IMG/VR virus record: IMGVR_UViG_2541047802_000007
Reading direction: 5' to 3' (one strand)
Origin: a virus
Taxonomy: Duplodnaviria > Heunggongvirae > Uroviricota > Caudoviricetes
DNA length: 64,000 nucleotides
Below the pieces are notes generated by a model that saw only the letters and a list, made by a program, of their open reading frames with translations, was not told the DNA's origin and searched no databases. The translations under genes and the position numbers were made by a program. Below, in pieces: positions 30,624 through 31,115 of this stretch. Every line of letters begins with the position of its first letter. Position 1 is the stretch's first letter.

Positions 30624-30639
30624 CTGTAAATATAAACAG
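30624..30639. promoter_or_regulatory. LexA box (SOS operator)
   Basis: ctgtaaatataaacag = exact CTGT-N8-ACAG, ~45 bp upstream of RBS/ATG at 30683. Confidence 0.65.
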
Positions 30640-30682
30640 TGGTTATGCATACAGCATTGCGTGTGGTGTCATAGGAGGAAAG

Positions 30683-30871
30683 ATGCAGGACTATTTTTTG
30701 GAGTCTTTGAAGCTCCAGCGCATTGATTTTTTTCTTAAGCTTGTAGCGGCTAGTGAGTGTAGTGATGAAGAGAAGGGGCTGGCTCTGCAGTGGGTTTCTG
30801 AATTGACTGATGAACTCATGGCAAAAATCAGAACCCACGAATACAACCGCTCAATGGATGTCATCAGCTGA
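30683..30871 (+). CDS. Small protein, first gene of SOS-controlled operon (tum-like region)
   Basis: aggagg RBS then ATG; downstream of LexA box. Confidence 0.5.
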   Translation: MQDYFLESLKLQRIDFFLKLVAASECSDEEKGLALQWVSELTDELMAKIRTHEYNRSMDVIS

Positions 30872-30881
30872 GGTGACTTTT

Positions 30882-31115
30882 ATGCGCATTGAAATAATGA
30901 TCGATAAAGAGCAGAAGATTAGCCAGTCTACCCTGGACGCCCTTGAATCCGAGCTTTACCGCAATCTGCGCCCCCTGTATCCCAAAACGGTAATTCGCAT
31001 TCGCAAAGGTAGCTCTAACGGTGTGGAACTAACCGGACTGCAACTGGACGAAGAAAGAAAACAAGTGATGAAAATTATGCAGAAGGTGTGGGAAGACGAC
31101 AGCTGGCTGCATTAA
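30882..31115 (+). CDS. DinI-like protein (Tum-type antirepressor domain)
   Basis: MRIEIMIDKEQ...DALESELYRNL...WEDDSWL resembles DinI; gaggtga RBS. Confidence 0.65.
   Translation: MRIEIMIDKEQKISQSTLDALESELYRNLRPLYPKTVIRIRKGSSNGVELTGLQLDEERKQVMKIMQKVWEDDSWLH

Follow-up and report, generated by a model that had tools for sequence, protein, structure and literature searches.

In phage 186, the antirepressor Tum is controlled by LexA and inactivates the immunity repressor CI reversibly (PMC7708051); according to Shearwin et al. (1998), as cited in PMC3121763 and PMC7708051, Tum binds CI and prevents it from binding its operators. In Fels-2 and PSP3, a stop codon divides tum into two genes; in PSP3, antirepressor activity belongs to the first of these, and the second encodes a DinI homologue (Lemire et al., PMC3121763). 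The PSP3 record annotates the pair as tumA and tumB, and gives TumA as responsible for UV induction. For Fels-2, which resides in Salmonella LT2, the work of Bunny et al. (2002) is presented in PMC3121763 and PMC12626290 as showing that this prophage is the reason why a lexA-null allele is lethal in LT2, and the summary in PMC12626290 adds that all lexA-null sulA survivors were without Fels-2. In E. coli HS, either an in-frame deletion of ECHS_RS04495 ('tum' of the P2-like prophage DuoHS) or a lexA(Ind-) allele blocks mitomycin C-induced lysis and virion formation (Phollow study, Nat Microbiol 2025, PMC12055606). A LexA-controlled operon that pairs a small antirepressor with a DinI homologue is also found in the Gifsy phages (dinI-gfoA/gftA; Lemire et al. 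2011), which in this respect resemble the locus described here, although their gene order is reversed and, as these are lambdoid phages, the antirepressor and repressor families are unrelated.

The locus lies in a 64,000-nt stretch of viral DNA (hereafter the window), in a P2/186-family prophage of the Fels-2 type, and we conclude that it very probably constitutes the SOS operon of that prophage. An earlier note on this DNA had proposed SOS induction in the style of 186, through a LexA-repressed antirepressor, and the present analysis supports this proposal on several counts: a LexA operator lies on a p95-like promoter, the first gene (ORF1) resembles the N-terminal half of Tum by profile, the second (ORF2) is DinI-like, the prophage carries a 186-type CI, and the module sits between genes A and Q. 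The description of the unit as tum-like holds insofar as this is an SOS antirepressor operon, but the tum equivalent is split rather than fused and the operator appears double rather than single. The window derives from E. coli; its DNA from 30530 to 31300 is 100% identical to that of E. coli S88, MS7163 and others, and the module was found in 1144 of 5426 complete E. coli genomes, with at most four copies per genome, as well as in 60 phage records.

Among the described systems, Fels-2 (STM2728/STM2726.1) is alike at the level of DNA (approximately 97%) and of both proteins (98% identity between ORF1 and STM2728, 100% between ORF2 and STM2726.1), and has the same double LexA box, but it carries an orf97-like gene after the DinI-like gene where the window has PD-T7-1, and its CI is only 60% identical. 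In DuoHS, tum encodes a protein identical to ORF1 at 61 of 62 positions, the DinI-like protein is identical (WP_001217575.1), and the -35 hexamer, the spacer, box 1 (also the same in Fels-2) and the position after gene A are shared; it differs in a few bases of box 2 and of the 5' untranslated region, in its cargo genes, in a CI that is 41% identical, and in having an intact gene A. PSP3 has the same split arrangement and a TumB that is 78% identical to ORF2, whereas its TumA belongs to another subfamily (phrog_1993), linked to ORF1 at profile level only, and its CI is longer (286 aa). The p95-tum unit of 186 shares the LexA-repressed promoter with its -10 hexamer inside the box, an antirepressor directed against a homologous CI, the DinI-like moiety and the genome position; in contrast, its two halves are fused into one 146-aa protein with internal starts, its LexA box is single, and its N-terminal half is remote from ORF1.

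Operator, promoter and transcript ends

The exact CTGT-N8-ACAG box that had been noticed upstream of the genes, CTGTAAATATAAACAG, is present at 30624-30639, 43 nt upstream of ORF1 and thus ahead of the two-gene unit. It forms the core of an unstranded 20-mer at 30622-30641, TACTGTAAATATAAACAGTG (box 1), the first six bases of which are the presumed -10 hexamer, TACTGT. A second 16-mer, GTGGTTATGCATACAG (box 2, likewise unstranded, 30639-30654), shares one base with box 1. Taken alone, the bare 8-base core pattern is weak evidence for a LexA site: it has three matches in the window against 0.74 expected, a number reached in 4 of 100 shuffles, and the two further matches, at 11263 and 18860, are a single site counted twice, because positions 1-14119 of the window are the exact reverse complement of 16019-30137. 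The 20-nt LexA consensus, TACTGTATATATATACAGTA, is more discriminating, in that with up to three mismatches allowed it matches the window solely at 30622-30641 and none of 100 shuffles. All three mismatches of box 1 to this consensus fall outside the core, and box 1 thus combines the CTGT-N8-ACAG core, the A/T-rich spacer and the closeness to the consensus that characterize LexA operators of Enterobacteria.

Box 2 alone is a poor LexA site, with mismatches to the consensus at 8 of 20 positions. In combination, the pattern CTGT-N8-ACAGTG-N9-ACAG occurs once in the window, at 30624-30654, and in none of 100 shuffles, and the arrangement has the features of the colicin-type double SOS box, namely a second 16-mer that overlaps the first by one base, an ACAG end and similarity to colicin operators. 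Judged by its bases, the operator would thus be a double one of colicin type, at which occupancy by two LexA dimers is predicted, with LexA presumably binding both boxes directly. A 48-nt stretch of the Fels-2 operator has counterparts of 80-95% identity in more than 1200 plasmids, the majority of which are mobilizable; in the two plasmids examined, it immediately precedes colicin N and a colicin-like tRNase bacteriocin gene, respectively. The promoters of colicins and klebicins have two overlapping SOS boxes and share TATACTGT-N8-(A/C)CAGTGGTTAT-N4-TACAGT with the phage operator; they differ in driving bacteriocin genes on Col plasmids and in having an unrelated -35 region and downstream leader. 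Colicin operators are reported to be bound by two LexA dimers and repressed very tightly, with no detectable basal expression (PMC2994835), and repression of this tightness would be sensible for a switch that kills the cell.

A hexamer resembling a -35 element, TTTACA (30599-30604, plus strand), lies 17 nt before TACTGT (30622-30627) and presumably serves as the -35 element of a p95-like promoter. A scan for the sigma-70 consensus called no promoter at the module, the -10 hexamer TACTGT scoring 3 out of 6. In the annotated p95 promoter of 186, the -10 hexamer is likewise TACTGT and forms the opening six bases of the LexA box, with TTCACA 18 nt upstream. Based on this annotation and on the conserved TTTACA-17 nt-TACTGT layout, we infer that box 1 extends over the -10 hexamer and the start of transcription, and that box 2 would cover the first 25 nt or so of the transcript. 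At the other end, RNA folding of 31116-31290 places a strong hairpin without a U-tract (31118-31160, plus strand; z-score -3.7) just past ORF2, at the position that the partial terminator t95a occupies in 186. A second, terminator-like hairpin, G+C-rich and followed by TTTT (31248-31275, plus strand), probably ends the SOS transcript according to the folding; it was missed by a scan for the terminator consensus because its T-tract consists of four T only. A search of 30000-33000 against Rfam gave nothing credible, the sole match, IS009, reaching 23 bits against a gathering score of 117.

For a comparison across species, we assembled 33 loci from different species, each with a relative of ORF1 (71-100% identity). 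In 31 of these, box 1 is retained with no more than one mismatch in the core, and it is exact in 25; its flanks vary. The two exceptions are a locus cut by the end of its contig (L009) and that of Siccibacter turicensis (L037), which has lost the box. The -35-like hexamer (at least four of six matches, mostly TTTACA) stands exactly 17 nt before TACTGT in 25 of the 33 loci, and box 2 is kept in 19, whereas the 17-nt spacer and the 5' untranslated leader are free to vary. Only one box is found in the loci of Pantoea, Erwinia and Tatumella. In 13 loci (L012, L016, L022, L026, L030-L037 and L039), no DinI-like gene follows downstream, with the tumA-type gene and LexA box still there; the Erwiniaceae loci among these 13 combine the single box with a leader of just 22-23 nt. 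The constant partner of the LexA box is thus ORF1, not the DinI-like gene. In Siccibacter turicensis (positions 2390-2500 of its locus), both LexA boxes are missing in front of the ORF1 homologue (GCTGTGTATATAAGTATTTGATATATAATATTT) and the N-terminus of the protein is no longer alignable; this homologue is probably a decaying copy.

The antirepressor gene and its DinI-like companion

The two-gene unit expected behind the box consists of ORF1 (30683-30871, plus strand, 62 aa) and ORF2 (30882-31115, plus strand, 77 aa), position 31115 closing the stop codon of the latter. ORF1, which is preceded by the Shine-Dalgarno sequence AGGAGGA at 30673-30679, is a tumA-type antirepressor gene belonging to phrog_698 (E 3.6e-38). 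A longer, 96-aa reading from the ATG at 30581 was considered and rejected, since it would begin ahead of both the -35 hexamer and the LexA box; the additional upstream part is not conserved as coding sequence across species, and the AGGAGG-ATG start is invariant.

The relationship of ORF1 to the known antirepressors emerges from profile methods only. Pairwise BLASTP detected no similarity of ORF1 to either 186 Tum or PSP3 TumA, and ORF1 has neither a Pfam family nor a relative by sequence in the PDB; its database labels are 'hypothetical' or 'levan regulatory protein'. In the profile searches, residues 1-70 of 186 Tum match phrog_698, the family of ORF1, at E 5.9e-6 (residues 6-44 on profile positions 6-44) and the PSP3 TumA family, phrog_1993, at E 1.5e-23, and ORF1 itself matches phrog_8554 at E 2.4e-8 and phrog_1993 at E 2.2e-3. 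Aligning the ORF1-family and PSP3 TumA-family alignments with hhalign gave E 3e-4 with columns 1-44 on columns 1-44, at a probability of just 40%. A three-way alignment reveals the common motif R-[IV]-x-[FM]-[FI]-x-x-L-x-A-x-x-x-C-x(7)-[LI]-A-L-x-[LW]-[IV]-x-[ED]-[LI]. Two further properties of Tum/TumA proteins accompany this relationship, namely a location behind gene A in a prophage whose CI is of the 186 type, and a LexA-repressed promoter, the latter read at sequence level from the near-consensus box over the presumed -10. AlphaFold models ORF1 as a helical hairpin (helices 2-23 and 28-61, pLDDT 90) with the conserved Cys in the turn; a Foldseek search of this model against viral structures returned no match with E of 0.001 or below, as expected for so simple a fold.

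That the second product is DinI-like, as had been noticed from the letters, is borne out by the Pfam DinI family PF06183, which ORF2 matches over the entire profile (1-63 of 63; E 6.6e-23, 81.3 bits against a cut-off of 24.2), and by a match to the solved DinI structure 1GHH (E 2.7e-6). With the profile link between ORF1 and Tum, similarity to Tum/DinI was thus found for both products, and the proposal was not refuted by these searches. Compared with 186, ORF2 shares 41% identity with Tum residues 71-145 and 42% with the 77-aa C-terminal product of tum, and it keeps an acidic C-terminal stretch, VWEDDSW, with binding to the RecA filament being predicted only. The two reading frames do not form a fused 146-aa Tum of the 186 type: ORF1 ends in a TGA at 30869-30871, followed by a 10-nt gap with a Shine-Dalgarno sequence of its own and the ATG of ORF2 at 30882. 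The unit thus has the split tumA/tumB form known from Fels-2 and PSP3 rather than a fused gene as in 186, and its antirepressor is ORF1, not the DinI-like product. DinI modulates RecA filaments, and the DinI-like product is most likely an accessory rather than the trigger, modulating the activity of the RecA filament and hence the strength or duration of the SOS response.

The CI repressor, gene A and neighbouring features

The prophage is laid out in the order integrase, CI, cox/apl-like gene, cII, fil and further early genes, dam, A, ORF1, ORF2, cargo gene, Q and late genes, and the module lies between gene A and the portal gene Q, as it does in 186, Fels-2 and PSP3. The gene-order map places the integrase at 23387-24406 (minus strand) and the replication gene A at 28089-30529. 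The immunity repressor at 24409-25041 (minus strand) is of the 186 type, with 32% identity to 186 CI over 195 residues (E 3e-36), and is the presumed target of ORF1; in S88 the same CI is named 'phage repressor protein CI' in RefSeq.

Within gene A, a 26-bp tandem duplication (CCCCTTGGACTCGTGGCAATAACTGT, two copies at 30106-30131 and 30132-30157) shifts the frame and splits the gene into reading frames of 695 and 118 aa. The same duplication is present in E. coli S88, where RefSeq lists a 'replication endonuclease, frameshifted', and is missing from Fels-2 and vB_EcoM-813R9. Because gene A is frameshifted in this way, productive phage induction in this strain is doubtful, and the prophage may be replication-defective.

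Several observations concern the remainder of the window. The inverted copy of 16019-30137 in positions 1-14119 is perfect (0 mismatches) and takes in int, CI and cII together with the larger part of gene A; the window opens 6 nt into the second of the two 26-bp repeats of gene A, and the turn of the palindrome falls inside an invertible tail-fibre segment (14120-16018). E. coli S88 has no such 14.1-kb inverted duplication. The inverted copy is probably a hairpin assembly artefact at the end of the contig, while it could also be a real inverted duplication. In the same segment, a pair of tail-fibre-assembly genes (14562-15579) is oriented opposite to that of S88, consistent with an invertible segment beside a truncated recombinase gene.

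A second LexA-controlled dinI-like gene is found in a neighbouring prophage remnant at 18599-18877 (minus strand, mirrored at 11261-11539). Two LexA-like boxes, at 18858-18877 and 18830-18849, stand 8 nt apart just upstream of its MRIEIS... frame, and one of them has an exact core; in S88 this gene is a frameshifted pseudogene with an internal stop according to RefSeq. About 330 nt downstream, in the same direction, follows a type IV restriction gene: the DUF262 protein encoded at 16324-18273 (minus strand, mirrored at 11865-13814) gives a full-length match to a type IV methyl-directed restriction enzyme (PADLOC, 1415 bits). Two further defence-related genes were recognized by PADLOC. A PD-T7-1 gene (31437-32846, plus strand, 469 aa; E 1.3e-196) lies directly downstream of the SOS operon and fills the cargo slot that is held by orf97-like genes in 186 and Fels-2, and an AIPR-family/AbiU-like abortive-infection gene (41712-43412, minus strand; AbiU, E 2.4e-24) lies on the opposite strand between tail and baseplate genes.

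Mechanism, alternatives and significance

In the undamaged cell, LexA would sit on the double operator over the -10 hexamer and transcript start, and would thereby shut the p95-like promoter. Upon DNA damage, active RecA would promote the self-cleavage of LexA and the promoter would fire, giving a transcript predicted to encode the 62-residue helical-hairpin protein of TumA type and the DinI-like protein of TumB type. TumA would then bind the 186-type CI and block its binding to the operator, so that the early lytic promoter would be derepressed and lytic development would follow; its action on CI would be reversible and would proceed without cleavage of CI. That TumA contacts CI in this particular prophage is suggested by analogy, and the sensitivity of the CI of the window to TumA is extrapolated, since the CI of DuoHS, the prophage in which Tum was tested, is only 41% identical to it. 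Phages whose ORF1 is identical or 98% identical differ widely in CI, with only 36-60% identity between their CI proteins, and the sole long block conserved in these is the N-terminal helix-turn-helix domain, the C-terminal domains being different. As that domain alone is conserved among the CI variants, TumA may dock on it. One TumA combined with many CI variants was not met in the literature searched. One could also speculate that TumA works across immunity types by docking on the N-terminal domain, as a general trigger that cross-induces co-resident P2-like prophages, and that Col plasmids and P2-like phages came to share the double operator by exchange rather than by its arising twice, although we consider this combined proposal rather unlikely.

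Two readings would deny the operon its role as a switch. The CTGT-N8-ACAG match could be a chance event in A+T-rich intergenic DNA, and the counts for the 8-base core, with less than one match expected per window and three matches in a few per cent of the shuffles, would by themselves leave some room for this; the 20-mer and double-box patterns, neither of which turned up in any shuffle, and the retention of the site, at constant spacing from the -35 hexamer, in nearly all species loci leave it next to no chance, and conservation can be taken to have already refuted it. While it is feasible that the LexA-controlled unit is a mere DinI-type modulator of the host SOS response, serving lysogenic conversion, with an unrelated ORF1 that has no part in induction, this is very improbable and already largely refuted: induction is abolished when the 98% identical orthologue of ORF1 alone is deleted, and it is ORF1 that constantly accompanies the LexA box and is connected by profiles with the N-terminal half of Tum. 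What speaks for a modulator is that dinI homologues under LexA control are common in phages, the gene at 18599-18877 being another one in this window, and that ORF1 is without a Pfam family, PDB relative or informative database label.

A third reading accepts the switch and questions its outcome, and we regard it as a serious contender, if at somewhat less than even chances. It holds that the module is intact but a relic, in that the prophage with its frameshifted gene A does not replicate, and TumA either brings about an abortive derepression, in which the early and late genes kill the cell, or acts in trans on other resident P2-like prophages. The duplication at 30106-30157, with the corresponding S88 gene annotated as frameshifted, is in line with this, and action in trans is conceivable because an identical ORF1 occurs with many CI variants and up to four copies of the module reside in one genome; the antirepressors of the Gifsy phages have been documented to crosstalk (PMC3121763). 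Against it, the truncated A protein, at 695 aa, is about as long as the A protein of 186 (694 aa), such that activity may persist, and both genes of the module, like the operator, are undamaged and do not differ from those of functional relatives.

As an SOS operon that releases a Fels-2-like prophage from repression, the module belongs to an already known and experimentally characterised kind, established for 186 in 1989-1998, for Fels-2 in 2002 and for DuoHS in 2025. It accounts for the response of Fels-2-like prophages to DNA-damaging antibiotics, a response that P2 lacks, and about one fifth of complete E. coli genomes carry it. The present analysis adds a colicin-type double operator, as predicted from its sequence, a facultative DinI-like gene, the combination of one TumA with many CI variants, and a broken replication gene in this lineage, small details which may help to predict which prophages truly get induced.
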